Below are positions 1-58,476 of a stretch of 64,000 nt of DNA, one piece after another (position 1 is the first letter of the stretch; each line of letters opens with the position of its first letter). Source of the DNA: Owenia fusiformis (lineage: Eukaryota); NCBI GenBank assembly GCA_903813345.2, contig CAIIXF020000001.1, forward strand, positions 2,852,001 to 2,916,000, in the 5' to 3' direction. The notes beneath the pieces are model-generated. The model ran no database searches, had not been told where the DNA came from, and was given only the letters and a program-made list of their open reading frames with translations. The position numbers and the translations under genes were made by a program.

Positions 1-367
1 CAGTATACATGACAAATTAACTGTATTAACTATTAATACAGTATGAGATGTTCAAGTAAATATAAAGGCATAAGATCAACAACTACCAACAAAGAATGCA
101 ATCAATAAATAAATTCCCTGACTATGCCCTAACGCCACAGATTTGACTGACACAATGTACAAAACACAAACACAATTCAGAATTGAGCCTACATGATATT
201 ACAAAATACAGCCATGGATGTATGTTTCAAAGTTTATCATCTGTAGATAAAAAGCATGATGTAACACTTTCTTTTTAACTTATCTGGTATTAAATTTAAT
301 AAACATAACATATTTAATATACAACTAGGCACGACACATTTTGCCTGTCAACTTTTGTATTGCAAAG

Positions 368-453
368 ATGGGGTTTCTTTCAGACCACAAATGGCATGCC
401 TGCTACATGTACTTGCTCTGTCTTGCTTTAATTGTCATCACAGAGGCTCAAAG
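368..453 (+). CDS. Uncharacterised gene, exon 1: signal-peptide-like MGFLSDHKWHACYMYLLCLALIVITEAQ(R)
   Basis: ATG at 368, hydrophobic core LLCLALIVI, strong donor AAG|gtatgt at 454. Ends in phase 2 (AG), matching the A-TGG start of the exon at 4553. Confidence 0.7.
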
Positions 454-1583
454 GTATGTATAATTTACTTTAACGGTTTAAAATGTGAATTATGGTGTCA
501 TATTTGGATTAACCTTCAAAACAACTAGAACAAATAATGATGAAAAAAAATGTTAATGGATCCATGGATATTATACAGATTTGAACAAAAGAACAGAGCT
601 CATTGGTCACTTAACCCTTTATACCTGAAACGAGAAACCCCACAAGCGCATTTCTATTTTTCAATTATTGAAAACTCATAAAAAAACAAAATGAAACTAG
701 AACTTAACATCTGATATACTTTAAAAATCTTATAAATATAGGAACAAGTACTTGAAAATGATAAATGTTCAAATCAAATTACTCACTACTGGAATATTTG
801 ACAATCTTTTTTGTACAAAGGTTATATTGTGATGTAAGCACAGTCAACTATCAAATATTCTATCAGAGCAACAATCCTATCACATAATTTTCTCTTGAAA
901 TAAATAATAGCATCTGCAGATATCTCAACATTTTCCTGTTTAGCTATAGTTTCATTTGTTTCATAAAATATGAAAAGTTGCTAACATTTCAGCAAGTAAG
1001 CCAAAACTTTAAAAGTTTAATCAATTAAAATTTGTGTTTTAACTCATAACCTTAAACAATATTTCAGGTCCTTTCGACATTTAGATTTCATAAAAGAGCA
1101 GTTAAGAAACTATTGTAATAAAATTTTATTTGAAGAATAGGACTGGGGAGATCTAAAGCTTATTCTTCACGCTTCCTAGTCAACTCGTACCCAAGACAAC
1201 TCATACCCAAGACAACTGGTACCTAAGACAACTCGTACCCAAGACAACTGGTACCCAAGACAACTCGTACCCAAGATTATTTTCAGTATTATGGTTGCAT
1301 ATTGGGGAAAAAATAGAGTTTGTAATGCTTTCATGTTATAATGTGAATCAAATAATCCTCAATATTTTTTGAATTTAGACGACATTTTTTCTCAATGGAT
1401 CAGTAAAGCATTTTTTTTATTAAATAAAAGAAGTGCTTGAAGCGCTTGTTCTCAACATTTTTTTGTCAAACATATATATAAATAAATATAATTACAACAT
1501 TAGATCTGACACTTGTTCCAAACACTCATATATAAACATACAATATTTTGAAAAATGATCATGAACATGTGGAATAAACATAT

Positions 1584-4331
1584 TGTAACGGCTAGCCTAA
1601 TTTGGGTAGTGTGGGTGTTTTTAGACTAGGCTAGGTCACTTTGGGGATACGTTGTACACATTAAATGTACGTGTGAAAATAAAGAGACACAATAATTAAT
1701 GAAAGCTTAACAATATATATTCTGGCTTCATCCGCCTCAAAATAATACAACACAAATTGATACTAAGTTTCAGTTTCAGAGGTGCGAATTATAAGTCCTT
1801 TATGCAATTATATTTGTATATTTATCTCTATATATAAATGTTCATCACTAATATAGTTTTTCATCAGCTGAGCGATGCATATTCTAAGTCCACCAAGTTG
1901 AAGATATAATCTAAGTTCATCAAATGAGTTGGTGAATATTCTAAGTCTATCAAACTGAAGATGTATGGAATCTGCTAAGTTCTTCAGATTATCGATGAAT
2001 ATTCTAAGTCCACCAAGTTGAAGACATAAACTAAGTTCATCAAACGGGCTGTGAATATTGTAAGTCTATCAAACTGAAGATTAAGTCCACCAAGTTGAAG
2101 ATATAAACTAAGTTCACCAAATGGGCTGTAAATATTCTAAGTCTATCAAACTGAAGATGTATGGAATCGGCTAAGTTCTTCAGATTATTGATGAATATTC
2201 TAAGTCCACCAAGTTGAAGATATAAACTAAGTTCACCAAATGGGCTGTAAATATTCTAAGTCTATCAAACTGAAGATGTATGGAATCTGCTAAGTTCTTC
2301 AGATTATCGATGAATATTCTAAGTCCACCAAGTTGAAGACATAAACTAAGTTCATCAAATGGGCTGTGAATATTCTAAGTCTATCAAACTGAAGATGTAT
2401 GGAATCTGCTAAATTCTTCAGATTATCGATGAATATTCTAAGTTCACCAAGTTGAAGACATAAACTAAGTTCATCAAATGGGCTGTGAATATTGTAAGTC
2501 TTTCAAACTGAAGATGTATGGAATCTGCTAAGTTCTTCAGATTATCGATGAATATTCTAAGTCCACCAAGTTGAAGATATAAACTAAGTTCACCAAATGG
2601 GCTGTAAATATTCTAAGTCTATCAAACTGAAGATGTATGGAATCGGCTAAGTTCTTCAGATTATTGATGAATATTCTAAGTCCACCAAGTTGAAGATATA
2701 AACTAAGTTCATCAAATGAGTTGGTGAATATTGGCTAAGTCCCTCAATATATACGTAAATATTCCTAAGTTCCTCTGGGCATCAAACTCCAGGCAACTAT
2801 GGTGAATATTGGCTAAGTCCCTCAATATATGCGTGAATATTCCTTAAGTTCCTCTGGGCATCAAACTCCAGGCAACTATGGTGAATATTGGCTAAGTCCC
2901 TCAATATATGCGTGAATATTCCTAAGTTCCTCTGGGCATCAAACTCCAGGCAACTATAGTGAATATTGGCTAAGTCCCTCAATATATACGTAAATATTCC
3001 TAAGTTCCTCTGGGCATCAAACTCCAGGCAACTATGGTGAATATTGGCTAAGTCCCTCAATATATGCGTGAATATTCCTAAGTTCCTCTGGGCATCAAAC
3101 TTCAGACAACTTTGGGGAATATTGGCTAAGTCCCTCAAGGTAATATCTTCTAAGTGTATCGACCGAAAAATTCTCTAAGTCCATCAAATTGTATGCAGAA
3201 TTCATCTAAGTCCCTCAAGGTAATAAAATTCTCTAAGTCCATCAAATGGTATGCAGAATTTGTCTAAGTCCCTGAGGCATCAATCTCTAGAGGTGCGTGG
3301 AGGTTCCTTCTCATCAAAAGTTGTGTACGTGCCTCTCAGTATATGTAGAATCTGCCTAAGATCCTCTAAGTATACCAGGGTAAAATCCTCTAAGTCCCTC
3401 AACGGGTATGTCGAATCTGCCTAAGATCCTCTAAGTATACCAGGGTAAAATCCTCTAAGTCCCTCAATATGTGAGATGAAATCTTCTAAGTCCATCAGAT
3501 ATATGCTTAGAATTAGCCTAAGTCCATCAAGCGTCAATCCCTGGAGGCACGCGGGTCTGTCCTCTCTCAGTTCCAGCTAGAAAAGTGCCTGCTGAGTCAC
3601 CTGGTCGTCTCTATTTATACCCCAGACATGTATGTAACATGTACTAGGTTTTGCACACGAACCTAACAAGTGATTAATGGGCTGATGCAATACCTAGGCC
3701 CCTGGACAGGACAAAACTGGTGTACAATTACTATGACGCAATCAGGATATGAATAGTGCAAAATAACTGGCTTCATTTAGAACTCACAATCTGTGCTATC
3801 TAATGTAACATCAATATATGTTTAGTATATAATTAACTAGATAAATGTATAAACTAAATAAATATAACATAAACCAATCATCATTGGTTTTAATCATGCC
3901 GAAATTGACCGAAAAAACTAGTAATTGAATGTAGGTCAAGATAGCTCTTCAAAAGTAAGATGAAAAAATGTAAACAAATGAAAGCAAAATGAAATCTCAC
4001 AAAATCGAACAGTTTACAGGATTCTGCCTACTCCTTTAGTGTCACATACATTCATGTAAGTATACTACTTGTCAAACAAACTGAAAAACAGTTTCCAAAT
4101 GTGTTAACTGTAAGCGAACTGATAAAATGGCACAGGACTACAAAGAACAGAAAATTTGAAAAGTAAAAATTTGTTACAATATGTCTCTTCGCTCGAACAT
4201 CCTGAATCTGTGACCGATATAAAATAATAGTCAATATAAATTGACACTCAGCTCAAAATGTCACAAAATTAAATCAATTTCTTCCGAAAATTCTTCTTCA
4301 AACTTTAAACTATTCTGAACAGTATGTTACA
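1584..4331 (-). mobile_element. Probable solo LTR carrying internal tandem repeats, nested in the 16-bp-arm element
   Basis: TGTAAC...GTTACA termini and a minus-strand TATA-like GTATAAATA at 3612-3620. The TSD is not exact. Confidence 0.45.
1881..3530. repeat. Compound tandem repeat: ~119-120-bp units, then 78-bp units, then degenerate units, all built on a CTAAG core
   Basis: 119-120-bp period at 1881-2720, 78-bp period at 2723-3138, CTAAG roughly every 25-50 bp. Confidence 0.9.
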
Positions 4332-4552
4332 ATTATAATATGTATATCTATTCACATTCCTAGTCAACACTTGATTCAAAACAAAATATATACTTGGGTA
4401 CGAGTTGTCTTGGGTACGAGTTGTCTTGGGTACGACTTGTCTTGGGTACGAGTTGACCAGTTACCTTCCTCATTATACTAAGAAAACACTGTTTAGCTAA
4501 TATAAGTGAATCCTTAGATACATATATTATACTTTAATATGTATATTTACAG

Positions 4553-5242
4553 ATGGGAAAACCATGACCCTTGGAAGATTGGGGAATTTGAGCTTAATGT
4601 CAAAATTATGATTGACACTGAGAGATCAAGTCTTAGTGATTTTGTAATGGAGAAGGAGTTGACCCAACCATGTAAGGAAACCAAGATTCTTTTGGTAGCA
4701 GGAATCAGAGAGCTTTCAACAAGAGAATTCCATCTAAATGATGAATTGACTGAAATCATGAGGATGACAATGAAAGATATGAAAACATTCAAAAATATCA
4801 AGAATTCACTGCAGGCAATCGTGCACAAAAACCTGGATATGATGCAACCAAGGTTGGCATGGTATTACAACCATAAAGAATGCAAACAAGATGAAAATGG
4901 CGACTATTGTTTCACCCAAGTTGATTATACATTAAAGTTCTTTAACACATACAAACTAAAAGGACAAAAACAAATGAAGAAAGTAACATTTAAGGACTAT
5001 TTTCAATACAGGATTAAAAGAAATTCGACGAAAGCAAAATCAGATTCATATCATGCTAAAGGAAAAAAACATATAACAATCGTCATAAAACATGTATTCA
5101 CAGAGAAAAGTATTGTAAGCTCACTGGCATATAACATATGGACATTTTTCTTTGGCAAAGCAGAAGATATTGATGACTCAATAATGATCATCATACCAAG
5201 TTTTGAGAGCACAACTGAACATGACCAAAAGGTGGCACACTT
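4553..5242 (+). CDS. Uncharacterised gene, exon 2: first copy of a ~230-aa repeated domain
   Basis: Acceptor tatttacag|A at 4552, 690 nt open, donor CTT|gtgagt at 5243 (phase 2-2). Aligns without gaps to exon 3 (W.N.DPWKI.EFE, QPRLAW, C..D..GDYC). Confidence 0.8.
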
Positions 5243-5667
5243 GTGAGTGCATTGTTAATGTAATCTTAACATTTTAAAGCTAGAGATAATATATCAAATT
5301 GCCATATATGAGTTAATCCGAACAGACAATGCAGATGGGGTGTCAAGGTGACCTCATTTAGACTCCTCTCCAAAAAATTGCCAACTGGAAGCCCACATTT
5401 GATGTGTTAAGTGTGTTAAGCCTGATAAAGTTTATCTTTGTTTTCTTCCTAAATATCAATAGTTCAGAGGCTTATGACAAGTTTGTTGAATGTTTTTAAA
5501 TCACCAAACAAAGACAAGCTTTAATACATTATCCAGAAGGGAACTTCCTGTTGTTAAACTTATGAATGGGAGTGTAAGTATAGTATTGTACTATGTAATG
5601 CATACACAAAATGTTTATTGCAAACACAATTACAAATTTTGTACTTGACTGTTTATGAATTTTTCAG

Positions 5668-6570
5668 ATGGAAAAACTTTGACCCGTGGAAGATCAGGGA
5701 ATTTGAGATTACAGCTCGATTTGAGGTGGAACCTGAGAGATCCAGACTTAGTGGTAATCAGATTGAGGAGGCACTGAAACAACCTAGCAATGAAGCAAAA
5801 CATCACTTGATAGAAGATCTCAGAAACCTTACTCATTTGGAATTTCATCCAAATGATGAAGTAACCAATATTATTAAACAGATGCTAAAGGGCTTTAAAA
5901 CATTTACAAATATTAAGAATTCTCTTAAACTGGTAGTGCATGAAAGCCTAAACACCAAACAACCAAGATTAGCATGGTTTTATGATCGCAGTGAGTGCTC
6001 TAAGGATGACACTGGGGACTACTGTATGACTCGTGTTAATGTAGAATTGAAGCTTATTATACCTAACAAAAAACAAAATGTTAAACAAAAAGAAATGACA
6101 TTTGAAAAGTCCTTTATCTATGGGATTACAGCAACACCCTCTGAAGCATCGGATCTATCTGATAGAGTAAGAAAACCACTATTTGTCAAGATCAGACATA
6201 GTACAGAGATGAGTATGATAGTATTGCAACCTCTTTGACGTATTATGTAAAGAAACTGTTTTTGTTTTTCACTGGTAAATCACAAAAGGATGGTACAGTA
6301 AGGATCTATTTAAACAGGATAGCCGAACCTGAGGACAAAACTTGTGCCAATCGGAAAACTGAGAAAAGTGTCACTTCTGCATATAATATATTCACAGTAA
6401 TAGGTATTATTGTAATAGCAGTTTCGATCATTACGAACAAATATTTTTATATTAATTGTTCCATCAGTTTAATTCTGGTTTTTATCTGGTTCAATTCAAT
6501 TGCTATTTGCTATTGTTTGGCACTGCCTACAATTGTTCTTTTCCTCAGAAGACAGGATTTCAGCATCTAA
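5668..6570 (+). CDS. Uncharacterised gene, exon 3: second domain copy with a frameshift near 6210 (stop at 6238); the shifted frame continues to 6570 with hydrophobic segments
   Basis: Acceptor tttttcag|A at 5667. Paralogous to exon 2. Homology to exon 2 (SIVSSLAY..FFFGK vs SIATSLTY..LFFTGK) switches frame at ~6210. Confidence 0.72.
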
Positions 6571-6864
6571 TATTTCCTCTTCAGATAAAAGAGAAAATGT
6601 GTGTTCTCAAACCCTGCATTATGATTTGTTATTTGGAAAATTATATTTACTAAACTAAGCATACTACATATGATGTATGTACAGCAAGTTTATATGTATG
6701 TTTGAACATGTACTATGTTTTACATACCTAGCGAAGCATTTGAATGGAAGTCAAAGGCAAAGTAAGCAGGCTATATCCACTGACAGTGCTGACTTACACC
6801 AATTTTGTGAAGGTTTCGTAAAAAATTGGAATTGAATACATTTGAAGATGTAATAAATTCTTAC

Positions 6865-6999
6865 TTTTCATGGTTGCCTCATCATCTTCACTGTCTTCGT
6901 TGATTACCATAGTTCCTATCTCAGAGTCTATGGATGTCATTGTGTTACTTTCACTGTTAACTCCCACTGTACCACTGTCCCCACTTGGCACCATAGTCC
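6865..6999 (-). CDS. STK3: Hippo/MST kinase exon 11 (linker GTMVPSGDSG...IGTMVINEDSEDDEATMK)
   Basis: Matches the MST1/2 linker LGTMVIN...GTMK. Acceptor tatag at 7000-7001, donor AAA|gtaaga. Confidence 0.88.
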
Positions 7000-9566
7000 C
7001 TATAATTAAAATGTAATATAGATGTCATTGTGTTACTTTCACTGTTAACTCCCACTGTACCACTGTCCCCACTTGGCACCATAGTCCCTACAATTCAAAT
7101 GTAATATAGATGTCATTGTGTTACTTTCACTGTTAACTCCCACTGTACCACTGTCCCCACTTGGCACCATAGTCCCTACAATTAAAATGTAATATAGATG
7201 TCATTGTGTTACTTTCACTGTTAACTCCCACTGTACCACTGTCCCCACTTGGCACCATAGTCCCTATAATTAAAATGTAATATAGATGTCATTGTGTTAC
7301 TTTCACTGTTAACTCCCACTGTACCACTGTCCCCACTTGGCACCATAGTCCCTACAATTAAAATGTCATATAGATGTCATTGTGTTACTTTCACTGTTAA
7401 CTCCCACTGTACCACTGTCCCCACTTGGCACCATAGTGCCTATAATTAAAATGTAATATAGATATCATTGTGTTACTTTCACTTTTAACTCCCACTGTAC
7501 CACTGTCCCCACTTGGCACCATAGTCCCTACAATTAAAATGTAATATAGATGTCATTGTGTTACTTTCACTGTTAACTCCCACTGTACCACTGTCCCCAC
7601 TTGGCACCATAGTCCCTATAATTAAAATGTAATATAGATGTCATTGTGTTACTTTCACTGTTAACTCCCACTGTACCACTGTCCCCACTTGGCACCATCG
7701 TCCCTATAATTAAAATGTAATATAGATGTCATTGTGTTACTTTCACTGTTAACTCCCACTGTACCACTGTCCCCACTTGGCACCATAGTCCCTACAATTA
7801 AAATGTAATATAGATGTCATTGTGTTACTTTCACTGTTAACTCCCACTGTACCACTGTCCCCAATTGGCACCATAGTCCCTATAATTAAAATGTAATATA
7901 GATGTCATTGTGTTACTTTCATTGTTAACTCCCACTGTACCACTGTCCGCACTTGGCACCATAGTCCCTATAATCAAAATGTAATATAGATGTCATTGTG
8001 TTACTTTCACTGTTAACTCCCACTGTACCACTGTCCCCACTTGGCACCATAGTCCCTACAATTAAAATGTCATATAGATGTCATTGTGTTACTTTCACTG
8101 TTAACTCCCACTGTACCACTGTCCCCACTTGGGACCATCGTCCCTATAATTAAAATGTAATATAGATGTCATTGTGTTACTTTCACTGTTAACTCCCACT
8201 GTACCACTGTCCCCACTTGGCACCATAGTCCCTACAATTAAAATGTAATATAGATGTCATTGTGTTACTTTCACTGTTAACTCCCACTGTACCACTGTCC
8301 CCAATTGGCACCATAGTCCCTATAATTAAAATGTAATATAGATGTCATTGTGTTACTTTCATTGTTAACTCCCACTGTACCACTGTCCGCACTTGGCACC
8401 ATAGTCCCTATAATCAAAATGTAATATAGATGTCATTGTGTTACTTTCACTGTTAACTCCCACTGTACCACTGTCCCCACTTGGCACCATAGTCCCTACA
8501 ATTAAAATGTCATATAGATGTCATTGTGTTACTTTCACTGTTAACTCCCACTGTACCACTGTCCCCACTTGGCACCATAGTCCCTATAATTAAAATGTAA
8601 TATAGATGTCATTGTGTTACTTTCACTGTTAACTCCCACTGTACCACTGTCCCCACTTGGCACCATAGTCCCTACAATTAAAATGTCATATAGATATCAT
8701 TGTGTTACTTTCACTGTTAACTCCCACTGTACCACTGTCCCCACTTGGCACCATAGTCCCTATAATTAAAATGTAATATAGATGTCATTGTGTTACTTTC
8801 ACTGTTAACTCCTACAGTACCACTGTCCCCACTTGGCACCATAGTCCCTATAATTAAAATGTAATATAGATGCCATTGTGTTACTTTCACTGTTTACTCC
8901 CACTGTACCAGTGTCCCCACTTGGCACCATAGTCCCTATAATTAAAATGTAATATAGATGTCATTGTGTTACTTTCACTGTTTACTCCCACTGTACCACT
9001 GTCCCCACTTGGCACCATAGTCCCTATAATTAAAATGTAATATAGATGTCATTGTGTTACTTTCACTGTTTACTCCCACTGTACCACTGTCCCCACTTGA
9101 CACCATAGTCCCTATAATTAAAATGTAATATAGATGCCATTGTGTTATTTTCACTGTTTACTCCCACAGTACCACTGTCCCCACTTGGCACCATAGTCCC
9201 TATAATTAAAATGTAATATAGATGTCATTGTGTTACTTTCACTGTTAACTCCCACTGTACCACTGTCCCCACTTGGCACCATAGTTCCTATAATTAAAAT
9301 GTAATATAGATGTCATTGTGTTACTTTCACTGTTAACTCCCACTGTACCACTGTCCCCACTTGGGACCATCGTCCCTATAATTAAAATGTAATATAGATG
9401 TCATTGTGTTACTTTCACTGTTAACTCCCACTGTTCCACTGTCCCCACTTGGCACCATCGTCCCTATAATTAAAATGTAATATAGATGTCATTGTGTTAC
9501 TTTCACTGTTAACTCCCACTGTACCACTGTCCCCACTTGGCACCATCGTCCCTATAATTAAAATGT
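6933..9566. repeat. 30 copies of an 88-bp unit consisting of the exon-11 acceptor plus the first 67 nt of exon 11
   Basis: GATGTC register at 6933, 7021, 7109 ... 9485 (exact 88-bp period); copies are near-identical. Confidence 0.97.
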
Positions 9567-9874
9567 GTTCATGGAAGACTTTGAAGATCTTCAATGATGT
9601 TCATTGTGCTTATACTCTTTGCAAAATTTAAGAAATAGTAATCAAAAAGATAATTAAAAAAAACTTAATTTTCTAAAAAATATTTATTGCATGAAATGAT
9701 CTATATTGTCTCTATGTACAGAGCACGTATTTAGATTTCTATTTTACAGAAGTACTCTGAAGCAGCAACAGTGATTTTAAGCAATAAATTTTAATAAAAA
9801 ATATCAGAAGAAATTGACTGAACATTCATATTCTTCATCTTGAGATAAATGAGTGTCATGATTTAGAGACTTAC

Positions 9875-9953
9875 CAGTTTCATTTTTGTGAGCTATCATG
9901 GTTCCTGAGTCTGGGTTCCCCTTCACCATTGTGCCTGTGTCAGTCTCTTCATC
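9875..9953 (-). CDS. STK3: Hippo/MST kinase exon 10 (DEETDTGTMVKGNPDSGTMIAHKNET)
   Basis: ttgcag|GAT ... G|gtaagt; resembles the MST2 DEDELDSHTMVK region. Confidence 0.88.
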
Positions 9954-10541
9954 CTGCAATACAAAACATACAGTGGATGATTTCTGTTTGAACTTTAACA
10001 TACAATAAAGGGTCAGGTTTTGACTCATTGCATTTGATACATACATGGGTCAAATGTGGATCAGTTAACCTCTAGGTTAGGTTACCAGTGGAGCAGTCAT
10101 TGCGAAAATGTAATTTGAAATAACTGCCCAATTAGGTAGTGCAGCTAAAAGCCTTTATTTAGTTATTGTGTTTATTTTATGTTTTTGTACAAAGTATAAG
10201 CTTATGAGTAAAGAACATGCTTATTTCTTTCTGGTTGTTGCATAAAAGTAAAAAATAAAGCAATCATTTCAAACTCATATCTGCTATTAATGTTATTTTG
10301 TCAAATTATTACCTCATCACGTTAAGTCTTCACAATAGATTTCCCTGACCTCATTCCAGAATGAATTACGAGGGATAAAAGGTTTTTATGAATCCATTAT
10401 AATTTTGCAAGGTTTGAATTCTGAATTCAGCTGCTTACTACTATCTTAATGATTGAGGTTCATTGGCCCAAGAACAGAAGGTCCAAACTTATCTCACTTG
10501 ACCCAATTCAAGGACAGAGTATAAAATGGAGGGGTACTCAC

Positions 10542-15440: not shown

Positions 15441-15745
15441 ATTTTCACCTCTCATTGTCTATAACTACTGAGTTCACAGTTTTAGAGACATGGTCAATAT
15501 ATCTATGCATGCCTATAAACTTAAATGAATACATACGGGGAAGGGGGTAAAGGTCCATCACATTTCGAAAAACCACATTAATTTTTACATAGATTAGTTA
15601 TTTTTAATCATTATTTATTAATTTTTACATAGAAAGAAATTAATAAATTAGTGCATATTAGAGAGGAAGGGAGGGTTCAATCTGCAATTAATCATATTTT
15701 GAGACAATCAAAAATTGACCTGGTCTCTGTATATTAGATACTTAC

Positions 15746-15883
15746 AAGTAACAATTCTTTGGCAGAGGCCCTCTTCTCTGGGTCCTTTACAAGACATACT
15801 GAGACAAAGTCTATAAACTCTGGTGACCATTTGTTCGGGTTTCTAAATGATGGTGGAGGTTTGGTAGGTATCATAAATATTGC
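15746..15883 (-). CDS. STK3: Hippo/MST kinase exon 8 (AIFMIPTKPPPSF...RASAKELLL)
   Basis: Kinase subdomains X-XI; 138 nt; canonical splice sites. Confidence 0.95.
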
Positions 15884-16074
15884 CTGGAAAATATTGTAAA
15901 ATGAATGTACATATATTTAGTGCTCTCAATACATATTTAGAGGGATTTAGACCAGGGAACAGACTGTATTATATCTTGGTGAATAGACAACAATGACTAA
16001 GAAGAAAAATGATTCAATTAACAAGAGCAGAAGTTTTTTTGTAAATAGTAACCTTGTTATGTAAACTGACTTAC

Positions 16075-16136
16075 CCTCATGGGATGTATGTCAGCATAGG
16101 GTGGCTTCCCCTCTGCCATCTCCAGAGATGTAATAC
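16075..16136 (-). CDS. STK3: Hippo/MST kinase exon 7 (GITSLEMAEGKPPYADIHPMR)
   Basis: Near-identical to MST1/2; gtag|GT and AGG|gtaagt. Confidence 0.95.
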
Positions 16137-16138
16137 CT

Positions 16139-18924
16139 ACAAGAACACAAATGTGTACAATATGTCCCCACCAATGGGTGATCCCGTCAAATGGTTATCC
16201 TGAAAATGAGTAGACAAGACTTTAACAACACAATTTGAGGATGGAAAATCCAAAATGGCCACCTTAAAATTTACCCAGAATGCCCAAAATTTAGTCAGTT
16301 TTAGATTTTCATACTAAGAACCACCCTTGACTATTTGAAATTGATCCATCACACAATTAACCAGAAAACATGTAAACAAGACTTTACAGACAAGATTTCA
16401 GGATGGAAGATCCAAAATGGCTGCCTTGACATTTACCAAGAATGCCAAAAAACTAATCAGTTCTAGATTTTCATCATTCCTGAAAATATGAAATTGATCT
16501 ACCAAACGGTTCACCTGAAAACGAGTAGACAAGACTTTACAGACAAGATTTTAGGACAGAAAATCCAAAATGGCTGCCTTAACATTTACGCAGAATGACA
16601 AAAAACTAATCAGTTCTAGATTTTCATACTAAGAATCATCCCTGAAAATTTGAAATTGATCTACCAAACGGTTCACATGAAAACGAGTAGAAAATACTTT
16701 ACAGACAAGATTTTAGGACGGAAAATCCAAAATGGCTGCCTTGACATTTACCCAGAATGCCCAAAAACTAATCAGATCTAAATTTTTATACTAAGAATCA
16801 TCCCTGAAAATTTGAAATTGATCCACCAAACAGTTCACCTGAAAACGCGTAGACAAGACTTCACAGACAAGATTTTAGGACCGAAAAATCCAAAATGGCC
16901 GACAGTAAAAAAGTCATTATGAGTTTTTGCTGATTTCTTTTTACAAAATTATCACATATAACTACTGTTTCCAATAGCATAGGCTTTTACAACAAAGTAC
17001 ATCTGAAATTATTTATAAAGCTACTAAATAGTTAAAGTATGAAAACTGAAAAACACCATTCAATATGATACAAAGTATTATCGCGCGCTAACTTTTCTTA
17101 AGACATTCAAAATGGCTGACATGACTGAGCTAACAAGTCCAAAACCTAATCAGATCTAGAATGAAGTGAGCTGAACAAGATGTTAAAGTTTTACAAGAAC
17201 ACAAATGTGTACAAAATGTCCCCACTTTTGGGTGATCCCGTCAAATGGTATCCTAAAAATGGGGAGACAAGACTTTACCGACACAATTTGAGGACGGAAA
17301 ATCCAAAATGGCCACCTTAAAATTTACCCAGAATGCCAAAAAATTAGTCAGTTCTAGATTTTCATACTAAGAACCACCCCTGAAAATTTGAAATTGATCC
17401 GTCACACAGTTAACCAGAAAACATGTAAACAAGACTTTACAGACAAGATTTGAGGACAGAAAATCCAAAATGGCTGCCTTGACATTTATCCAGAATGCCA
17501 AAAAACTAATCTGTTCTAGATTTTCATACTAAGAATCATCCCTGAAAATTTGAAATTGATCTACCAAACGGTTCACCTGGAAATGCGTAGACAAAACTTT
17601 ACAAACAAGATTTTAGGACAAAAAATCCAAAATGGCTGCCTTGACATTTACCCAGAATGCCCAAAAACTAATCAGATCTAGATTTTCATATTAAGAATCA
17701 TCCCTGAAAATTTGAAATTGATCTACCACGGTTCACCTATAAACGCGTAGGCAAGACTTTACGGGCAAGATTTTAAGACGGAAATCCAAAATGGCTGCCT
17801 TGAGATTTATCCAGAATGCATAAAAACTAATCAGAGCTAGATTTTCATACTAAGAATCATCCCTGAAAATTTGAAATTGATCTACCAAACAGTTCACCTG
17901 GAAATGTGTAGACAAGACTTTACAGGCAAGATTTTAGGACAGAAAATCCAAAATGGCTGCCTTAAAATTAACCCAGAATGCCCAAAAACTAATCAGATCT
18001 AGATTTTCGTACTAAGAATCATCCCTGAAAATTTGAAATTGATCTACCAAACGGTTCACCTAAAAACGCGTAGACAAGACTTTACGGGCAAGATTTTAAG
18101 ACAGAAAATCCAAAATGGCTGCCTTAACATTTATCCAGAATGCATGAAAAATAATCGGATTTAGATTTTCATACTGAGAATCATCCCTGAAAATTTGAAA
18201 TTGATCTACCCAACGGTTCACCTGGAAATGCGTAGACAAGACTTTACAGACAAGATTTTAGGACGGAAAATCCAAAATGGCTGCCTTAACATTTACCCAG
18301 AATGCCCAAAAACTATTAAGATCTAGATTTTCATACTGAGAATCATCCCTGAAAATTTGAATTTGATCTACCAAACGGTTCACCTGAAAATGCGTAGACA
18401 AGACTTTACAGACAAGATTTTAGGACAGAAAATCCAAAATGGCTGCCTTGACATTTACCCAGAATGCCAAAAAACTAATCAGATCTAGATTTTCATACTA
18501 AGAATCATCCCTGAAAATTTGAAATTGATCTACCAAACGGTTCACCTGAAAACACGTAGACAAGACTTTACACACAAGATTTTAGGACGGAAAAATCCAA
18601 AATGGCCGACAATAAAAAAGTGATTATGAGTTTTTGCAAATTTCTTTTTACAAAATTATCACATATAACTACTGTTAACAATAACATAGGCTTTTACAAC
18701 AAAGTACACCTGAAATTATTTATAAAGCTACTAAATAGTTAAAGTATGAAAACTGAAAAACACCATTCAATATGATACAAAGTATTATCGTGCGCTAACT
18801 TTTCTTAAAACATTCAAAATGGCTGACATGACTGAGCTAACAGGTCCAAAACCTAATCAGATCTAGAATGAAGTGAGCTGAACAAGATGATAATGTTTTA
18901 ATACTGTATGTGGTGGGGACATAA
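16139..18924 (-). mobile_element. Tandem pair of Helentron-associated non-autonomous elements (HINE/DINE-1-like) with ~162-bp internal repeats
   Basis: On the minus strand it starts TTATGTCCCCACC and ends GGTGGGGACATA, then a hairpin ACACA-TT-TGTGT, then TCTTGT. A second copy of this end is at ~17193. Confidence 0.8.
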
Positions 18925-19122
18925 CAATACACAAAACATGTAGTGAAATACAGCTTACTTGGCAGTACATACAGTAAAACCTATATACCTGTACAGCTCT
19001 CAATCCAAACACCTCTCAATGTGAACACCTTTTCTCGGTCCCAAATTTGTTATCTTTCAACGTCTCACAAACATTAACAGTAAAATGTGAACACCTGCTA
19101 ATCCTTACACTTTTGGCAGTTA

Positions 19123-19263
<141 letters not shown>

Positions 19264-19651
19264 CTATATGTGGAAACAATGAAAAGGAGATAAGAACCAG
19301 AAATAAGACATGCAAAGTATGAGAAAGGGTTGACTTAAAAGTAAGATTCATTGTAGATGTATATTAGAAGAGTGTGAAAAGGTAAGGTAAGGTACAGTAT
19401 TGACTATTGAGAAATATTTGGAAAATTTACAGAAATATTTAAGCTGATTTGAGAAATATTTGAAAAAGGTTCGGAAAAGCACATGGCCTTTCAGTTAAAA
19501 ATAAGTATGAATGGTCCTGTATTCTGTATTCTGGTACATCGTTCAGTATATACATCTAAACCTATAGTAAATAATAAACAGCAACACTCCTTCATAGTCT
19601 GGTATACACATCACATGGGTATATACATGTATTCATGGGTATATATCTTAC

Positions 19652-19816
19652 TGTTAACTGTCCTGCGACACCAAAATCAGCTAGTTTTGCCTGGCCTTCA
19701 GTATTAAGTAAGATATTGCCTGCTTTAATGTCTCTATGAATTTTTCGCCTTTCATGTAAATATTCAAGTCCTTTGAGCGTGTATGATAATACAGTTGCGA
19801 TTTCATCTTCTGTTAG
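19652..19816 (-). CDS. STK3: Hippo/MST kinase exon 5 ([11 protein letters not shown])
   Basis: Catalytic loop and DFG motif; 165 nt; canonical splice sites. Confidence 0.97.
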
Positions 19817-20056
19817 CTGAAAGAACAGAGCAAAATTCTGTGTTCTAGTCACATGTCAAATGTCCACATTGTGAATGACCCAGCATGCCCAAAACTTTGA
19901 GATATTGGTCATACAATGACAATACAGCACTTTCAAGTGTGATACTTTAGCCAAATATCTATGGAGGGTTAGTGATTTGAACCTTTTCTTTAAGTGCCAA
20001 AATGTGAGCATTCAACTGAGTCCAGCTGCGTGATTTGCCATGATTAACTGACTTAC

Positions 20057-20119
20057 TGTTTTATTACGTAGCCTCATCAGATCAGAGACAGAACCAGCGC
20101 CACAATACTCCATAACGAT
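20057..20119 (-). CDS. STK3: Hippo/MST kinase exon 4 (IVMEYCGAGSVSDLMRLRNKT)
   Basis: Hinge region; tttag| and |gtaagt. Confidence 0.95.
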
Positions 20120-20366
20120 CTAAAAAATGACAGAATTATTCAAAACCACATTTTTCTCAAGAGATAAAACAAATACTCATACTGCATGTCAAAAGTTAAT
20201 ATTTCTTTTTCTTCTTTTTCGAATTTCATACCTATATAAATGAGATGCAAACTTTTCAGATGTAGAAGTCTTTCATTTTTAAAGTGCTTACTAGAAAAAC
20301 ACTATATAAATTTTGTTACTTGCCACCTTCTGCCTTTATAATATACCACCCCTTTCTTATACTTAC

Positions 20367-20547
20367 CCATAGATCAGTCTCTTTAAAATAGCTGCCATAA
20401 TACTTCACAATGTATGGACTGTCACACTGTTGCATAATTGAGATTTCTTTGATGATTTCCTGCAGATCCGAGTCTACAGGGACTTGTTTGATGGCCAGGA
20501 CCTGACCTGACTCCTTGTGGAGAGCCTTGTAAACGCTGCCATATGAC
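20367..20547 (-). CDS. STK3: Hippo/MST kinase exon 3 (SYGSVYKA...AIKQVPV...TDLW)
   Basis: Kinase N-lobe, near-identical to MST1/2. Confidence 0.97.
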
Positions 20548-21732
20548 CTACATGGGAGAACCAATGGAAGTTAATGATAAATGCAAAAATACAGTCTGCC
20601 ACACAGACCCTAAAATAAGGTAATCAGTGTATTACAAATGGAAAACAATTTTAGAGCACTGCTTTAGACTAGATATTTATTCAAACTGTTATTGGAATTG
20701 CAATATTTTAATGATTGCCATTTTGGAATTCTACATTAACATGAAGATACTTGTGAAGCTATATTTTTTGTTTAATCTATGCAAGCACCAAAGGAAAAAT
20801 TTAGAAAATATATAATTATCTAAAAATCAAACAATGTTCATGCATATGTAATTATTCAATCAAGAATTCATTTTCATTCACAAAAGCATGCATTAAGGAG
20901 TCAGTTTAAAAGTAATACTACACCACCCTCCTTAATAACTGTGATAGATGTTGACTAGCACCCTCATTGTTCAAAATATTTAAAACTGTTCCAAAATTGA
21001 TTATTATGTTGTTTAAAAACAGAAGAGCGAGAGAATCACACTACTATACCTAACACCTAGAAATGCATAAGATACTTTGTTTGTCTAATTGAATTGTTTA
21101 ATATATTTTTGAAAGTGCCTTACTAGCATCTAATTTTCAACCGATAAACCATTCATAAGGAACAGACAAATAAAAACAAATACATAATCATTACTAATAA
21201 GCCAAATGGGTTGCTCATGAACACCTAATGCAAGGTATAGTAGTGTGAGAATGGATAAGCTGAAAGTGGCGGTATCCTTGCCCAAATTTATAAGCTACTA
21301 AACCAACAATGAACGAATATTTAAACTGCTCCTTTTCATCAGTACTACAAGTTAATATTGTATAAAGATGCCACAACCATGCTTATAATTAATTATCCCA
21401 ACCTGATAATTAGAAGATCATTCCATAAGATTTTGAAAACTTTTACAGTTTTTATATTTTTTTATCATTTCAATGTGAGGCGAAAAAAGTGCATTATCCT
21501 GATAGCATAAAATATACCAGATGATTACATAATTAAAAAGAATCACTGATTAAATATTTTTTCCTTTGCTCAAAGATTACTCATGCCCTTAAGGGGTAGG
21601 GCAAAAATAATATTTTTTTATGAAAATCACAACAAAGGATAGCCACTCTGCTCCTTTCATTTAGTTAAAGGCACTGAAATGATATACTGCCTATGAATTT
21701 CAATGTTTTTTAAGGATCTATTCCCTTTAAAC

Positions 21733-41221: not shown

Positions 41222-41244
41222 GTATATGCATATTAATCTATAAT

Positions 41245-44200
41245 TTTTTTATATTTTATATTTTCTATATTTTTGTCAGAGGGATTAGCCAAAAAAACAA
41301 AAGAAGCTGAAATTATTCCATGCAGTTGTTCAGATCACTGTGCTGTAATGGTTGAATGGAATGATACTGAGATAAAACGTGGTAAAGGTCATTGGAAATT
41401 CAACAATAGTCATTTAAAAGATATTAATTTTGTAAATAAGATAAACAGTGTAATTCAAGAAACTATAGCAGAATATGTTAATATTGTCAACCCACAGGTA
41501 TTATGGGATACATGCAAATGCATTATAAAACAGACATGTATTGAATTTGGAAAAAAAGAAGCACATGAAAAACAAAAATCTTTAAAAGCATTAGAAGATA
41601 GTCTTAAAGAAGCTCAAGAGATTTTATTTGAAAATGTAAATGAAGAAAATCAAAAGAATGTATTGAATTTGAAATTAAAACATGAAATCTTAACACAAAA
41701 TAGAACCAAAGGTGCACAAATTAGGTCGAGAGAAAAGTGGATAGAAGAGGGGGAGAGAAATACAAAATATTTTTTAGGATTAGAAAAACACAGGGCAAAA
41801 ATGAAATCTATTGAAATTTTACAAGATGATAATGGGGTTAATACAAACAATATGGATGAGGTAATGAACACGCTATATGTATATTATCAAAATCTATACA
41901 AAGAAAACCATGACATCAAATATACTTTAGAAAACTTCCTAGATGATGTTCAAACACCCAAATTATCAGAGAATGAAAATAGACACATAGAAGGATTAAT
42001 AACTGAGTCAGAATGTTATATAGCAATTAAAAAAATGAAGTGTAATACGAGTCCTGGAATAGATGGGTTAACACCTGAGTTTTATAAGGTATTTTGGTCT
42101 AAAGTGAAAGTATTAATGGTTAATTCATTCAACTATGCATTTCAGTCAGGTAGATTATCTAATAGTCAGAGGAAAGGAATAATATCATTATTACTAAAGG
42201 GTAAAGAACTCCCTAGATATAAACTTAAGACTTATAGGCCTTTATCATTAACATGTGTTGATTATAGGATAGGAGCAGCTGTCCTAGCAGCAAGAATCCA
42301 AAAAGTTATTAAAAATTTGGTTAATTCTGATCGAAACTCATATATGAAAGAAAGAGGAATACACTTAAATCTTAGAGTAATTGATGATATTTTGAATTTT
42401 GTGAATGATAATAACAGTCAAGGGATTATGATAACATTAGATTATTCCCGTGCGTTTGATTCAATTTCTAAAAAATTTGTGTTTGACATGATGAAACATT
42501 TTAATTTTGGAGAAGATATGATAACTTGGATCAAAGTATTCAATGCTGATAATTTATCTTGTGTCACAAACAATGGGTTGTACACAAAATGGTTCCCTTT
42601 AAATCAAGGATTACGGCAGGGTTGCCCCCTCAGTAGTTTGTGCTTCATTCTAGCTACTGAAATATTTGCGTGTAAAGTTAGGCAAAATAAAGATATAAAA
42701 GGTATAAAAATATCAAATGAATGTGAAGTGAAATTATCAAGTTATGCTGATGATGTATCATGTTTTGTTAGAGATATAAATTCAGCTCAACTATTATTTC
42801 GAGAATCAGACCACTTTTATCTTACAACAGGTTTAAAATTAAATAAAGAAAAAACAAATGCAATGTGGATTGGCTCAAATAAAAACAACATTGAAATGCC
42901 ATTAAACATAACATGGCAAATAGGGGAAAATGCAAAAGTGAAAATTCTAGGAGTTTGGTTTTCAAATCAATGTTCAGCTGCACAGATTGAGGAGAACTGG
43001 TTACCAAAAATAATTAAAATGGAAACGTTGATAAAAAATTGGAGTAAACGTAATCTCACATTGAAGGGTAAAATTACTCTTGCAAAAAGTTTAATAGCCT
43101 CACAAGTGACATCACTTTTAATGTCATTCAAAGCTCCAGATAAATATTTGGAAAGAATAAATAGTATCTTACATAAATTTATTTGGGGGAGTGAAAAAGG
43201 AAAAAATGACATGGGTTAAGAGAATTGTTGCAATTGAAAATTCAAATTCAAAATGGAAAGAAATAGCGCTACATTACTTAAACAAATTGGGGCATGGCGA
43301 AGATATTTTTAAATATAATACAAATGAGCGAAACCTTAAATCAAAAATAAAGTTAAAAGAAATTCCAGTTTTCTATGAATATTTAGTTAGTATTTGGCTT
43401 AAATATCAACATGTTAACAAGGAGAGACCTGTTAAAAATTCTGAAATTCTATGGAATAATGAGAAAATACAATACAGGAAAAATAACATATATTTTTGTG
43501 AATGGAAAAGAAAAGGAATTAAAATGGTAAAAGATGTATTAAATGAAAATAACACAATAAAAAATTATGAAGAAATTGTAGCGATAACTGGTGCAAGTCC
43601 AAGTAGACTTTTAGAATACAACATTGTAAGAACAGCTTTATCTAATATTATCATCATAAATGGATGTGATAATGACTCTAAATTTTTATACAAAAACATA
43701 AATGTTCAAAATTCAAAATCAAAAGATTTTTATCAATATATATTAAGTCTTAATCAATCAATTCCAAATTGTGAAGAAAAATGGAAAGGTTATTATCCAA
43801 CAATAAATTGGAAAGAGATTTGGAGTCGAATAAAAGCCTTAAAAGAACCAAGATTAAAAACGCTACAATATAAACTTCTACATAGAATTTATCCTACGAA
43901 TATACTTTTAGAAAAAATAAAAATATCAAATTCACCAAACTGTAAATATTGTAATCACATGCTAGACACATATGAACATTTCTTTATACAATGTCCAAAG
44001 ATTAGAGAAATATGGAATGAAGTAGAGAATCTAGTTTTGAAGAAATATTTTTATTACCCTAGATTGAATGTGACTGATAAGTTATTTGGAATCAAATTAA
44101 AATCCAGATCGGAGGAAGTATATATAAATAGCCTAATTGTCATAGCTAAGGTTTGTGTGAGTAAATATAAATATGGAAATTATCCAAATATTTTATGTTT

Positions 44201-44340
44201 GTTCAGAAGTGAAATAGCAATTAGGAAATTGTAAAGAAAATATTACTATATATTGTTGTTGTAGTAAAATATAATGTACTGTACTGTAATCTGTAATATG
44301 TTTATGTAGAAGCAATAAAAAAAAAAAAAAAAAAAAAAAA
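41245..44340 (+). mobile_element. 5'-truncated L1/Tx1-clade non-LTR retrotransposon (ORF2: endonuclease C-terminus, RT, Cys/His finger), frameshifted at ~43200
   Basis: SDH, KGHWKFN, SPGIDG, GLRQGCPLS, YADD and CKYC..H..C motifs; AATAAA plus polyA tail; 10-bp TSD AATCTATAAT at 41235 and 44341. Confidence 0.96.
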
Positions 44341-51836: not shown

Positions 51837-52832
51837 TTATAGAGCTCGATTGGAATCTCTCTCCCCGATAGTGACACCTGATATGGCAACAACAGGACTT
51901 TGACCAAATATGGGCACTGTTGCAACAAGTTTATATCTCACATCTATATTGTCGATGCCTTTCATCTTGGAGTGTTCTGTCGAACCCGGAATGATGAGCT
52001 GTCTGTTAGATGTTGTCGCTACCTCTCCCTTTGGAACGTTCAATGGTACATTTAGCTCAACTAATTGTTTTGTACATTTCATTTTGGTGCGCTTGAGATA
52101 TCTGAAATACATTCGTTTTTCTAGCACCAGTTTTACCTTTTTTACAGTACTGCGACTGTTATTATTGACAGATAATGACAGCTTGACTGGCTCACCCTCC
52201 GTGAAACCTGTTTTTTCCAGTTGAACATTAAGCTCTATTTTACCTCCAGCACAGAAGATCTGTTTCTCCCCAGAAGCCTCAGCAGGTTTAAAGAGCTCTG
52301 GTTTCTTATCAAGGTTTACAGGTCGTTTAACTAGAAACTCCATCTGGTTGGGTTTAGTTGGAATTTTCTTTTCACCGAAATGCGTTTTGAGGTTTATATG
52401 TGCTGAAGCATGGTATTCAATTTGTCCACCATTAACGTTACTGTTCCACTCCAGGGGACTGCCACAGAAGAATTTGAATGTAGATGGAAGAGATTTTGGT
52501 AATCTGAATTTGAAGGGAAAGGAATGATGACCCAGAGGGAGAGTTTCCTTGGTCCCATCCTCTTGATCACGTTTCCATAAGACCTTACTGAGTTCTAATA
52601 CAGTCTCTGCCTCTTCTTCCCGATCCCAGAAACTGTGGTACCATTTTTTGAAGGTCACCACAGCTTCCCCAATGAGATTCACCTCTAGACTGGTGGCATT
52701 GATCGAATTTTTTACGTCAATCTCGACTGTCCCATCGATGACATCACCTGGCTTAAATGGGCAGTTCTGATCATTGTCTTTATGGTTTATGACAACGGTG
52801 AAGGACTTCAAGCTTGAAAATAGACCAGGCAT
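51837..52832 (-). CDS. Alpha-arrestin (arrestin-domain-containing protein), intronless CDS, 331 aa
   Basis: PGDVIDG, LPLGHHSFPFKFRLPKSLPSTF and KTGFTEGE..L.VNNNS motifs. A splice acceptor at 52863-52864 in the 5'UTR implies an upstream non-coding exon. Confidence 0.93.
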   Translation of the reverse strand: MPGLFSSLKSFTVVINHKDNDQNCPFKPGDVIDGTVEIDVKNSINATSLEVNLIGEAVVTFKKWYHSFWDREEEAETVLELSKVLWKRDQEDGTKETLPLGHHSFPFKFRLPKSLPSTFKFFCGSPLEWNSNVNGGQIEYHASAHINLKTHFGEKKIPTKPNQMEFLVKRPVNLDKKPELFKPAEASGEKQIFCAGGKIELNVQLEKTGFTEGEPVKLSLSVNNNSRSTVKKVKLVLEKRMYFRYLKRTKMKCTKQLVELNVPLNVPKGEVATTSNRQLIIPGSTEHSKMKGIDNIDVRYKLVATVPIFGQSPVVAISGVTIGERDSNRAL

Positions 52833-54009
52833 TGTTCTTATCAGCAGTTAGTTCCTCAGCACCTGCAACATATGGTAAAACATTTTAAGTAATATATGCA
52901 GTGTGAAATCATCTTTAGAGAACTTCTCAGCACTAAAGCAGGTGATGCACCCACTTGAGATTTTGAAAATGTCTTGCACCCAATCAGTATCAAATATCAG
53001 CAATCAATTGATAATAAAATCAGTCCAAAAATGGCATAAGTATAATATCTTAACTGTGGTATTTACAAAAATGTTATTGCCAAATAAAATAGAAATCACA
53101 TGTTTTGCACCATGAAGAATGTCATGATGAATTTCCCTTTTCAGAAATCAATCTACTTATTGATATAAATGGCACATGGAGGATGTTATTTGCAAAGCAA
53201 ATGTTCAAAAACTGTATAGAAAATACAGCTTGTTAATAACATGTCTGCTAAATTAAAATGTTCACCGTTCATTCACCAGGTGCAGTGTATAATGTCACAG
53301 TAACAGTGTTTCAGTTTTGAAAGGTTTATAAAAAATAGAATGTTTATCCTACCATATTTTTTATTTTCCAATTGATATAATAGGCTTTACATAAAATGAA
53401 CCCTTATGTGCCTTTCTTTTGACTGTTCAGATAAATAAATTCTGCAAGGTTTCTGAGAGCAAACAAGTGCAAATAATATAACAAACAAAATACATCTAGT
53501 ATTTTTAATCCCCATGAAATTTTAGCTTTGATATACATGGTAGAATTTGTTCATTTAAAAGAAATCTATTCAGGCCATGCAGTAACTAAGGGGATGGGTT
53601 TGCAGGATGGCATCAGGCGGTCCAATTGTCCAGCAATTTACGTATTTGTCACACATTTGATGGAAAAGTCACGGCAGTTTTTTTGTGTGGGCGTACCAAC
53701 TCAAAATCTAGCCCTATGCCCATGGCTGGTAGTTCATCAAGCTACTAAGGGATGTGAGCTTGGTGAGGAAATATATTTTGATATATACTGTACATGGCAC
53801 ATTAAACTGCACATTTTATTTTTCAAAATGAAAATTTATGAGCTCCAGCAGGAAGTTGTTATAAAAAAATCAGTCATCAAAATGTACGGGTTTATGTGCA
53901 ATCTACATCTGCAAACTAATATATGACAGTGTTATGGTGCTGAATTCAATGAAACTCAAGTGAATACATTATTCACAGGAACTTGTATCAAAAACTGACA
54001 GTAATGACC

Positions 54010-56982: not shown

Positions 56983-58476
56983 TGTGTCGAAATGAGATTG
57001 AGAAGCAAAGAAAAAATATTTTGGGGCTTTCCATTCGGAGATCTCTATCGTATTTTAACTCCGTGCGCATTCATAGACCTTCTTATAGCTATCTAACTGA
57101 TACATATTATCATAAGGAAATTATTAAACAAGAAAGTGAAGAGCTGTGTTCCAGGAAAACGTATATACTTACCACAAGTTTGGGTTTACCCCATTCGGTC
57201 GCCCCAGCTCACCTTTACCTGTATCACGTGATGTCACCAAATTTAGATACACTAAACGAAATTAGATTCTTATCAATAAATTACCGGGCCATGACTCAGA
57301 TTCACTTGTTTGGGGATAGAGGTCCATGTTTGATGCAGCAAAATAACAGTAATATTTAAAATAATATGCAACGACTTCAGTAGGGGTGTTGCAATTGCCA
57401 GCTTTCAGTCAGGGGGGGGGGGGGCCAAAAAAATCAGTTTTCAATCAGGGATTTTGCATAAACAAGCCAAAAAGTAAAATTTATTTTGAATACAAAAATT
57501 GATGCAACTTCCTTCAAATTTGAGCTAGAAGCTTCAAATAGAAGCATTTCAAAGCTATTTTCTTCTTCTTTCTCATGGTTTTATGTATGATACATATATA
57601 CATAGATACATGTACTTCAAGAAAAGCCGGCGATTGGCCGCAGATTTTCTTTGCAAACGAAGTTGGCCGAGGGTACCACGAATGTGAAGAGGACGTCGCT
57701 AATTGGTCAAAAAGAGAGGCTCGGCATTCTCCTTCAGATTGAAATGGCAAAATTCGGTTCTATGGCTAACCTTCGGCTGCATGGCGCAACCTCGATTGAA
57801 TGGAAAAGATGCTGTGACACTGAGCTATGACAAGCTGTGACGACAAGTTGACTCTACAGATTGAAATTGATGCTTTGCCAACTTGATCCTTGGAAAAAGT
57901 TTCATTAAAAATATGTACATTGGATATGATTTTACTACATACGATTCTTTGCCCTCTTCATGACATTGCGAGGAAGTGAAGTTGTAGCTAAATCGTAATT
58001 GAGGTTATTAGAATACCCAAGTTGTCTTTTTTCTAATATATCGCACAAACGTTTCCATCTTAGATCTTTTAATAATGCTCTTGCCGGCTTTCTTCTAATT
58101 TGAAAAATTGCTTGACCCGCAGAGTATTGAAATGATATAAGTTTGGAAACAGCTGATTTAGGAATAGATGTAATAAATGTAAGCACACAATATACCACAG
58201 ATTAGATAAGACCAGTACAGTATGTATTCATTTAATGGATCAATTGATGCAATGTACCCATGCAGTCCAAAGAAATCATTGACTGGTAACTCAGTAGATT
58301 TGTGAAGTTCGAATGAAAATTACATCGTTTTGAGCTATTGACTTGTATTGAATACAATTGTCTAATTAAAGTCTGCTCCCATATCATATGATAGAAACAT
58401 GCTGAATACATGCTACCGTGAGGTCAATGCACGCCACAAAACGGTAGAACACTAGAATTTTCGTGATATATACTTT

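Follow-up and report, generated by a model that had tools for sequence, protein, structure and literature searches.

What is the forward-strand gene at the left end of a 64,000-nucleotide (nt) stretch of the Owenia fusiformis genome (contig CAIIXF020000001.1, positions 2,852,001 to 2,916,000; hereafter the window), and does it encode an intact protein? An earlier interpretation made from the letters of the window (the sequence-only reading) had placed at 368-6570 a gene for a secreted or membrane protein with a duplicated, unrecognised domain, lying antisense within hippo, a growth-control kinase gene. The locus is a protein-coding gene that is annotated in public data but uncharacterised: its joined exons match letter for letter CAH1772372.1, an 'unnamed protein product' of Owenia fusiformis of 457 amino acids (aa), and a literature search by accession found no papers naming any of the four accession numbers concerned. 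The reading that we favour, and consider somewhat probable, is that the protein enters the secretory pathway, carries two repeats as its ectodomain and is anchored in the membrane at its C-terminus, and that a frameshift has truncated the reference copy. This frameshift, which breaks repeat 2, is new here and was absent from the sequence-only reading.

The three-exon structure drawn from the letters of the window (368-453, 4553-5242 and 5668 onward) agrees with the public gene model. Exon 1 (341-453, + strand) begins its coding sequence in that model at 341, at a TTG which is rendered as M and precedes the first ATG (368) by 27 nt; we infer that the TTG start marks the 5' end of a transcript-based model. 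From the ATG at 368, which has an A at -3 and a G at +4, exon 1 comprises 28 codons plus 2 bases up to 453 and is followed by the donor GTATGT at 454. Its translation, MGFLSDHKWHACYMYLLCLALIVITEAQ, shows a hydrophobic core at residues 10-28 in a hydrophobicity scan, in keeping with the signal-peptide-like exon that had been proposed and with a secreted or membrane protein. Intron 1 (454-4552, + strand; 4.1 kb) ends in ...TTTACAG directly before exon 2 (4553-5242, + strand), which corresponds to repeat 1 and measures 690 nt, or exactly 230 codons, with equal phase at both ends. The exon 2 donor, GTGAGT at 5243-5248, does overlap an in-frame TGA (5244-5246), as had been pointed out. Intron 2 (5243-5667, + strand; 425 nt) closes with ...TTTTCAG directly before 5668, where exon 3 begins; in the reference reading this exon (5668-6238, + strand) carries repeat 2 up to a premature TGA at 6236-6238, which is also the end of the public 457-aa model. 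The first canonical poly(A) signal on the strand of the gene is an AATAAA at 6852-6857, a few bases from a hippo exon that begins at 6865.

Splice sites are canonical and phases compatible at both introns, with junction codons AG/A (R) and TT/A (L). CAH1772372.1 contains both junction residues, reading ...ITEAQRWENHDPWK... and ...KVAHLWKNFDPWK..., and thus runs straight through both phase-2 junctions as they had been drawn. Given the composition of the window (34.8% G+C), open frames as long as the three found here would arise by chance with probabilities of 3.7e-8 (230 codons), 7.9e-7 (189 codons) and 1.2e-4 (122 codons). Contigs from two sequencing runs, X1 and X2, span intron 2 unbroken; their use as RNA was accordingly rejected, since contigs that cross the intron behave as DNA. 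One loose end in X1/X2 is presumably Tn5/Nextera adapter.

Exons 2 and 3 encode two copies of one domain. Aligned with the first 189 codons of exon 3, exon 2 shows 42% identity (79 of 188 residues; E-value (E) 8e-51), and the alignment is ungapped over the first ~140 residues, bearing out the gap-free match over ~130 aa reported from the sequence-only reading. All five motifs listed there (W.N.DPWKI.EFE, EFH.NDE, KTF.NIKNSL, QPRLAW and C..D..GDYC) were found in both copies. A likely disulfide had been suggested for the C..D..GDYC pair; the data are compatible with it, both cysteines being missing together from the single-domain paralog described below, which fits such a bond and is no proof of it. 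Because exons 2 and 3 share both their acceptor context and their first residues, the arrangement is a tandem duplication of one phase-symmetric exon together with its acceptor.

The codon alignment of the two repeats points to selection on the protein. Over 176 aligned codons, repeat 1 and repeat 2 differ at 68, 55 and 88 sites in codon positions 1, 2 and 3, respectively (p 0.0014), and the proportions of nonsynonymous and synonymous differences (pN 0.338, pS 0.661) yield a ratio of nonsynonymous to synonymous rates (dN/dS) of ~0.28, with dS near saturation; the remaining two frames of the alignment hold 13-27 stops each. The protein was under long-lasting, past purifying selection after the duplication. 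Since these are long domains with a dN/dS of ~0.28 between repeats, the family is probably old and poorly sampled, and not newly born.

The reading frame of exon 3 is broken in the reference. The frame entered at 5669 stops at 6236-6238, and a continuation frame (6205-6570, + strand; 122 codons, stop TAA at 6568-6570), which holds the end of repeat 2 followed by hydrophobic segments, is offset from it by one base. The gene end at 6570 given by the sequence-only reading thus holds in part: there is an open frame to 6570, but in the reference it is not one frame with the start of the exon, which meets its stop at 6236-6238. The continuation frame resembles the C-terminal part of repeat 1 (local score 41 versus 20.7 +/- 3.6 for shuffles, with 2 of 2000 shuffles reaching the score), and the hydrophobicity scan places two hydrophobic segments in it at about 6367-6552; compared with that part of repeat 1, neither of the two remaining frames of the 6205-6570 region did better than shuffles.

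Independent DNA at the frameshift site (6199-6204, + strand) comes from X1, in which a single contig spans 5775-6749 at a depth of 9.9. This contig carries one extra A behind 6199, together with G6201A, and the extra A brings the 6205 and 5669 frames into register. Five small deletions, together 9 nt (1+2+3+2+1), follow in 6359-6385. Once the listed differences are introduced, the 5669 frame of the X1 haplotype is open for 303 codons versus 189 in the reference, and keeps the two hydrophobic segments. Because this frame stays open into the hydrophobic tail, an intact allele of ~560 aa, consisting of signal peptide, two repeats and hydrophobic tail, is predicted to exist. The contigs display one variant only, and the reference allele may also occur in X1; X2 contigs are without cover at 6180-6434. 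A tiny intron bypassing the frameshift was considered and rejected: the sole GT lies at 6201, its use would need a ~49-nt intron deleting the conserved SIATSLTYY, and the open haplotype has an A at 6201.

A further resemblance concerns the boundary between domain and tail. The repeat-1 stretch TEKSIVSSLAYNIWT (5100-5145) is matched by TEKSVTSAYNIFT (6360-6400), exactly at the start of the hydrophobic tail, and a weaker second match to the end of repeat 1 is offered by SIATSLTYY at 6220-6246. Repeat 1 may end in the degenerate remnant of what was formerly a membrane segment; if so, the duplicated unit would once have been domain plus anchor.

The domain remained as unrecognised as it had been to the sequence-only reading throughout the collections searched (Pfam, PDB sequences, 1.84 billion protein representatives, the ESM Atlas, and viral and metagenome contigs), and no confident match to a well-described family or to a transposon protein was found in them. 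An exhaustive phmmer search of the 1.84 billion protein representatives returned two matches, the gene itself and CAH1788701.1 (E 5.1e-4; UniRef A0A8J1Y453), an unnamed Owenia fusiformis protein of 378 aa encoded on another chromosome-sized record, which is 30% identical to repeat 2 over 149 aa (pairwise BLASTP E 9e-16). The alignment of the three domains (repeat 1, repeat 2 and CAH1788701.1) contains 34 invariant columns, so that CAH1772372.1 and CAH1788701.1 make up a two-protein Owenia family, similar over a domain of ~200 aa. The order of hydrophobic N-terminus, domain or domains and hydrophobic tail is complete in CAH1772372.1 only with a tail read from the shifted reference frame at 6205-6570, or in frame in X1.

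Other searches added no relative. A profile of the three domains confirmed 2 of 6047 candidates, both from Owenia and identical with the two proteins already named. A word-indexed protein search at near lengths gave 63 candidates, none of them significant, and at longer lengths recovered one protein, the gene itself, identical over the whole of exon 2. Pfam-A, at E up to 1, held no family matching repeat 1, the tail or CAH1772372.1, and yielded sub-threshold noise only for repeat 2 (Trp_repressor, 12.4 bits, where the cut-off is 27) and for CAH1788701.1 (CCSMST1, 11.5 bits, where it is 26.1). No relative emerged from searches of the ESM Atlas, the profile search of PDB sequences reached a best E of 0.12, and none of the pattern matches in viral contigs (145) or metagenome contigs (585) could be confirmed. 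Within the 64-kb window there were no further copies of the domain, and Rfam gave no match over 1-10000 at E up to 0.1. As judged from these sequence comparisons, the two genes appear to form a lineage-restricted (orphan) family.

The AlphaFold and Foldseek route proposed with the sequence-only reading produced unusable models and no fold match. AlphaFold predictions from three-row alignments reached a mean predicted local distance difference test score (pLDDT) of 37.2 for repeat 1 and 42.5 for CAH1788701.1, in whose model only the C-terminal helices exceeded 70; the ESM Atlas model of the 457-aa protein had a pLDDT of 0.47, its best neighbour showing a template modelling score (TM-score) of 0.25. 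With the poor repeat 1 model, the best Foldseek match had an E of 0.56.

The antisense position within hippo was upheld by the analysis of the host gene. Kinase-domain exons of hippo lie at 15737-20570 on the - strand, as open reading frames (ORFs) at 20319-20570, 19595-19855, 19123-19263 and 15737-15916, which in this order match positions 11-75, 94-150, 153-184 and 214-258 of the Pkinase profile and are therefore collinear with it. The best PDB matches of the ORF at 19592-19855 (- strand) are STK4 (E 2.7e-26) and STK3 (E 1.8e-25), ahead of STK24/25/26, identifying the host as a gene with a STE20-type kinase domain closest to STK4/STK3. The hippo kinase ORFs also contain GTPYWMAPE and a second, 14-letter motif, both of which we take to be Hippo/MST kinase motifs. 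The parts of hippo placed in the window are these four kinase-domain ORFs and two linker exons.

One of the linker exons (6865-7000, - strand) encodes ...GTMVINEDSEDDEATMK, has an RNA depth of ~75-100 and is spliced at both ends; the exon before it in hippo lies at 9876 and onward. At its other end, 75 reads from run X10 and 66 from run X11 stop matching the window at 6864/6865 and continue in 30 letters that match nowhere in the window even when 3 mismatches are allowed and of which no 11- or 12-mer occurs in it. None of the 107 minus-strand ORFs of at least 20 aa in 1-6900 matches the SARAH domain, in agreement with the earlier statement that no SARAH exons lie between 1 and 6864. Because spliced reads lead to an exon outside the window and no SARAH ORF is present in 1-6900, the conclusion is supported that hippo continues to the left of the window and that one of its introns, longer than 6.86 kb, encloses the whole + strand gene. 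The part of this intron inside the window is 1-6864 (- strand), with the next hippo exon left of the window. The host transcript is spliced across the whole inner gene, and hippo does not end before that gene, its reads leaving the exon at 6865-7000 for a further exon.

The same linker exon overlaps a tandem array of 88-nt units at 6929-9566 (30 copies, 96% alike) and takes its 3' splice site and its first ~70 nt from the last copy. With the last copy forming both acceptor and exon start, the intron upstream is filled with about 29 decoy copies of this acceptor plus exon start. RNA depth in X10 is equal over 6860-6944 (about 99) and 6945-7010 (about 86), and for this reason the other 88-nt copies are not in the mRNA; in the DNA-like runs, depths there are 671 against 41, which collapsed copies would explain. 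Among RNA reads of the hippo exon, two classes can be told apart by the letter at 6998 and by one letter of the upstream exon (62+59 versus 25+13 reads), and the sampled animals thus appear to express both alleles of hippo.

How the gene might work follows from the favoured reading, that of an anchored secretory-pathway protein. Its product would most likely enter the secretory pathway by way of an N-terminal signal peptide, presumably cleaved, and would present on its luminal or extracellular side an undescribed domain of ~200-230 aa in two tandem copies, which arose when one phase-symmetric exon was duplicated along with its acceptor. Two C-terminal hydrophobic helices would hold the product of the intact allele in the membrane, as predicted for the single-domain paralog. 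In the reference allele, a 1-nt shortfall in the last exon would truncate repeat 2 and remove the anchor, and the product, if the allele is real, would be a soluble, C-terminally incomplete protein. A stop in the last exon should escape nonsense-mediated decay, and because the premature stop lies there, the transcript of the reference allele should escape it as well.

Several observations weigh against this reading. The reference copy is frameshifted, and the 303-codon frame that would restore it was built from the differences listed, with 13 further differences present in X1, so that the intact allele is not fully proven. Signal peptide and membrane helices are predictions from a hydrophobicity scan alone, both structure predictions are too poor to tie the domain to a fold or function, and no relative outside Owenia fusiformis occurs in the databases searched. 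Between haplotypes, exon 2 shows 3 replacement and 2 silent changes in 690 nt, a density no lower than that of intron 2, whose 425 nt contain 3 substitutions and a single insertion of 5 nt; of the 27 single-site changes listed for 6205-6570, 20 are replacements, one of them removing the stop, and the haplotype block at 6337-6385 holds 15 listed substitutions and 9 nt of deletions. Differences between haplotypes look unconstrained, which suggests that present-day constraint is weak. Expression was assessed in two stranded RNA runs of one study, X10 and X11, of each of which about 6 in 100 reads were used, over a stretch that left aside exon 1 and intron 1 with its long tandem arrays. All bins of 4480-6689 had zero depth in both runs, next to a neighbouring hippo exon at 75-100, and the 5242/5668 junction that the sequence-only reading had looked to in stranded RNA was found in neither, a weak negative at ~6% of two runs.

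Much of this would equally be seen if the gene were decaying or silent, once functional and now unexpressed or dispensable, with the frameshift as one sign of its decay. The lack of RNA over exons 2 and 3 in X10 and X11, the frameshift in the reference, replacement-to-silent ratios near neutral expectation among the listed changes (3:2 in exon 2, 20:7 in the tail), the heavily altered block at 6337-6385 and the lack of relatives outside the species all lean that way. We nevertheless hold such decay to be rather unlikely, given that three frames of 230, 189 and 122 codons are open against the chance probabilities cited above, that dN/dS between the repeats is ~0.28, and that the splice sites are canonical with compatible phases; moreover, the other haplotype, with the listed differences, is open for 303 codons and its small deletions total a multiple of three, and the silence was recorded in ~6% of each of two runs from one study. 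Possible, and less doubtful than decay, is that the gene is intact and the frameshift at 6199-6204 an error of the reference assembly, in which case the product would always be the ~560-aa anchored form and the 457-aa model an artefact. The sole independent DNA across the site, the one X1 contig at depth 9.9, has the extra base, and the frame downstream is open, repeat-1-like and endowed with the hydrophobic tail that the architecture of the paralog predicts. The change is no simple homopolymer slip, however; it comes with G6201A in a heavily differing stretch and looks like true allelic divergence, and as contigs give one variant, the reference allele may be in X1 too, with X2 uncovered at 6180-6434.

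Descent from a surface glycoprotein of a transposon or virus, captured in the intron, is in our view highly improbable. The foldback-like repeat element in intron 1 and the general shape of signal peptide, ectodomain and anchor might recall such an origin, but Pfam at E up to 1 gave at most noise for both repeats, the tail, CAH1772372.1 and CAH1788701.1, viral and metagenome contigs held no confirmed relative, no further copy lies in the 64-kb window, and the gene contains introns and is situated beyond the element's inverted arms. A bolder extension of the favoured reading, which we regard as quite unlikely as a whole, would make of these proteins a new oweniid-restricted family of extracellular domains with a fold beyond current prediction, of the frameshift a polymorphism toggling anchored and secreted forms, and of the antisense position, with the AATAAA so near the hippo exon at 6865, a means by which transcription of the gene could be coupled to hippo splicing or to the use of 3' exons of hippo.

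Other features of the window deserve description. The foldback-like element occupies 1175-4460 in intron 1; its inverted arms, at 1175-1290 and 4378-4460, consist of 16-nt tandem units, are up to 96% complementary and enclose 3.1 kb, in which satellites of 119, 78 and 65 nt lie at 1885-3484. A 35-nt segment at 6720-6754, whose surroundings have a depth of about 10 in the DNA-like runs, itself reaches ~39,000 and ~15,000 in them, has RNA reads with varied flanks on both sides and gives no Rfam match; it belongs to a dispersed repeat of very high abundance or to organelle-like sequence. Possible transposon genes are seen further right, in the second half of the window, as long open frames of 660, 357, 336 and 508 codons (41237-44234, 51837-52847 and 58456-59982).

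For annotation, the value of these results is that the public model of 457 aa probably reads only part of a ~560-aa gene; the break is either an error of assembly or a segregating allele that is null or anchorless. On a small scale the family exemplifies the lineage-restricted and uncharacterised surface proteins which account for much of invertebrate genomes, and it is a reasonable target for structure determination. As such it is an ordinary orphan gene and holds nothing surprising to a specialist; the nesting of genes, too, is common.

The closest comparison is with the paralog CAH1788701.1, which has the same domain with the motifs W-K near its start, L-x-Q-P, T-F-x-x-I-K-N-x-L and Q-x-R-L-x-W; its N-terminus, immediately ahead of the domain, is hydrophobic, as is its C-terminal region. 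It differs in having one domain where the window gene has two, in missing both cysteines of C..D..GDYC, and in its longer hydrophobic tail, with about four or five segments versus two. Among orphan secreted and membrane proteins of invertebrates, the gene resembles others in its signal-peptide-like start, its fast evolution and its lack of a Pfam family or outside homologue; unlike a short, disordered ORF born de novo, it belongs to a two-member family of long domains with a dN/dS of ~0.28. As a small gene with its own start, introns and stop on the strand opposite to a host that is spliced across it, it joins the genes nested antisense in host introns, of which EVI2A, EVI2B and OMG inside an intron of human NF1 are an example. 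Here, in contrast to NF1, the host is hippo/MST, and the intron that houses the gene lies between a linker exon and the expected C-terminal SARAH exons.

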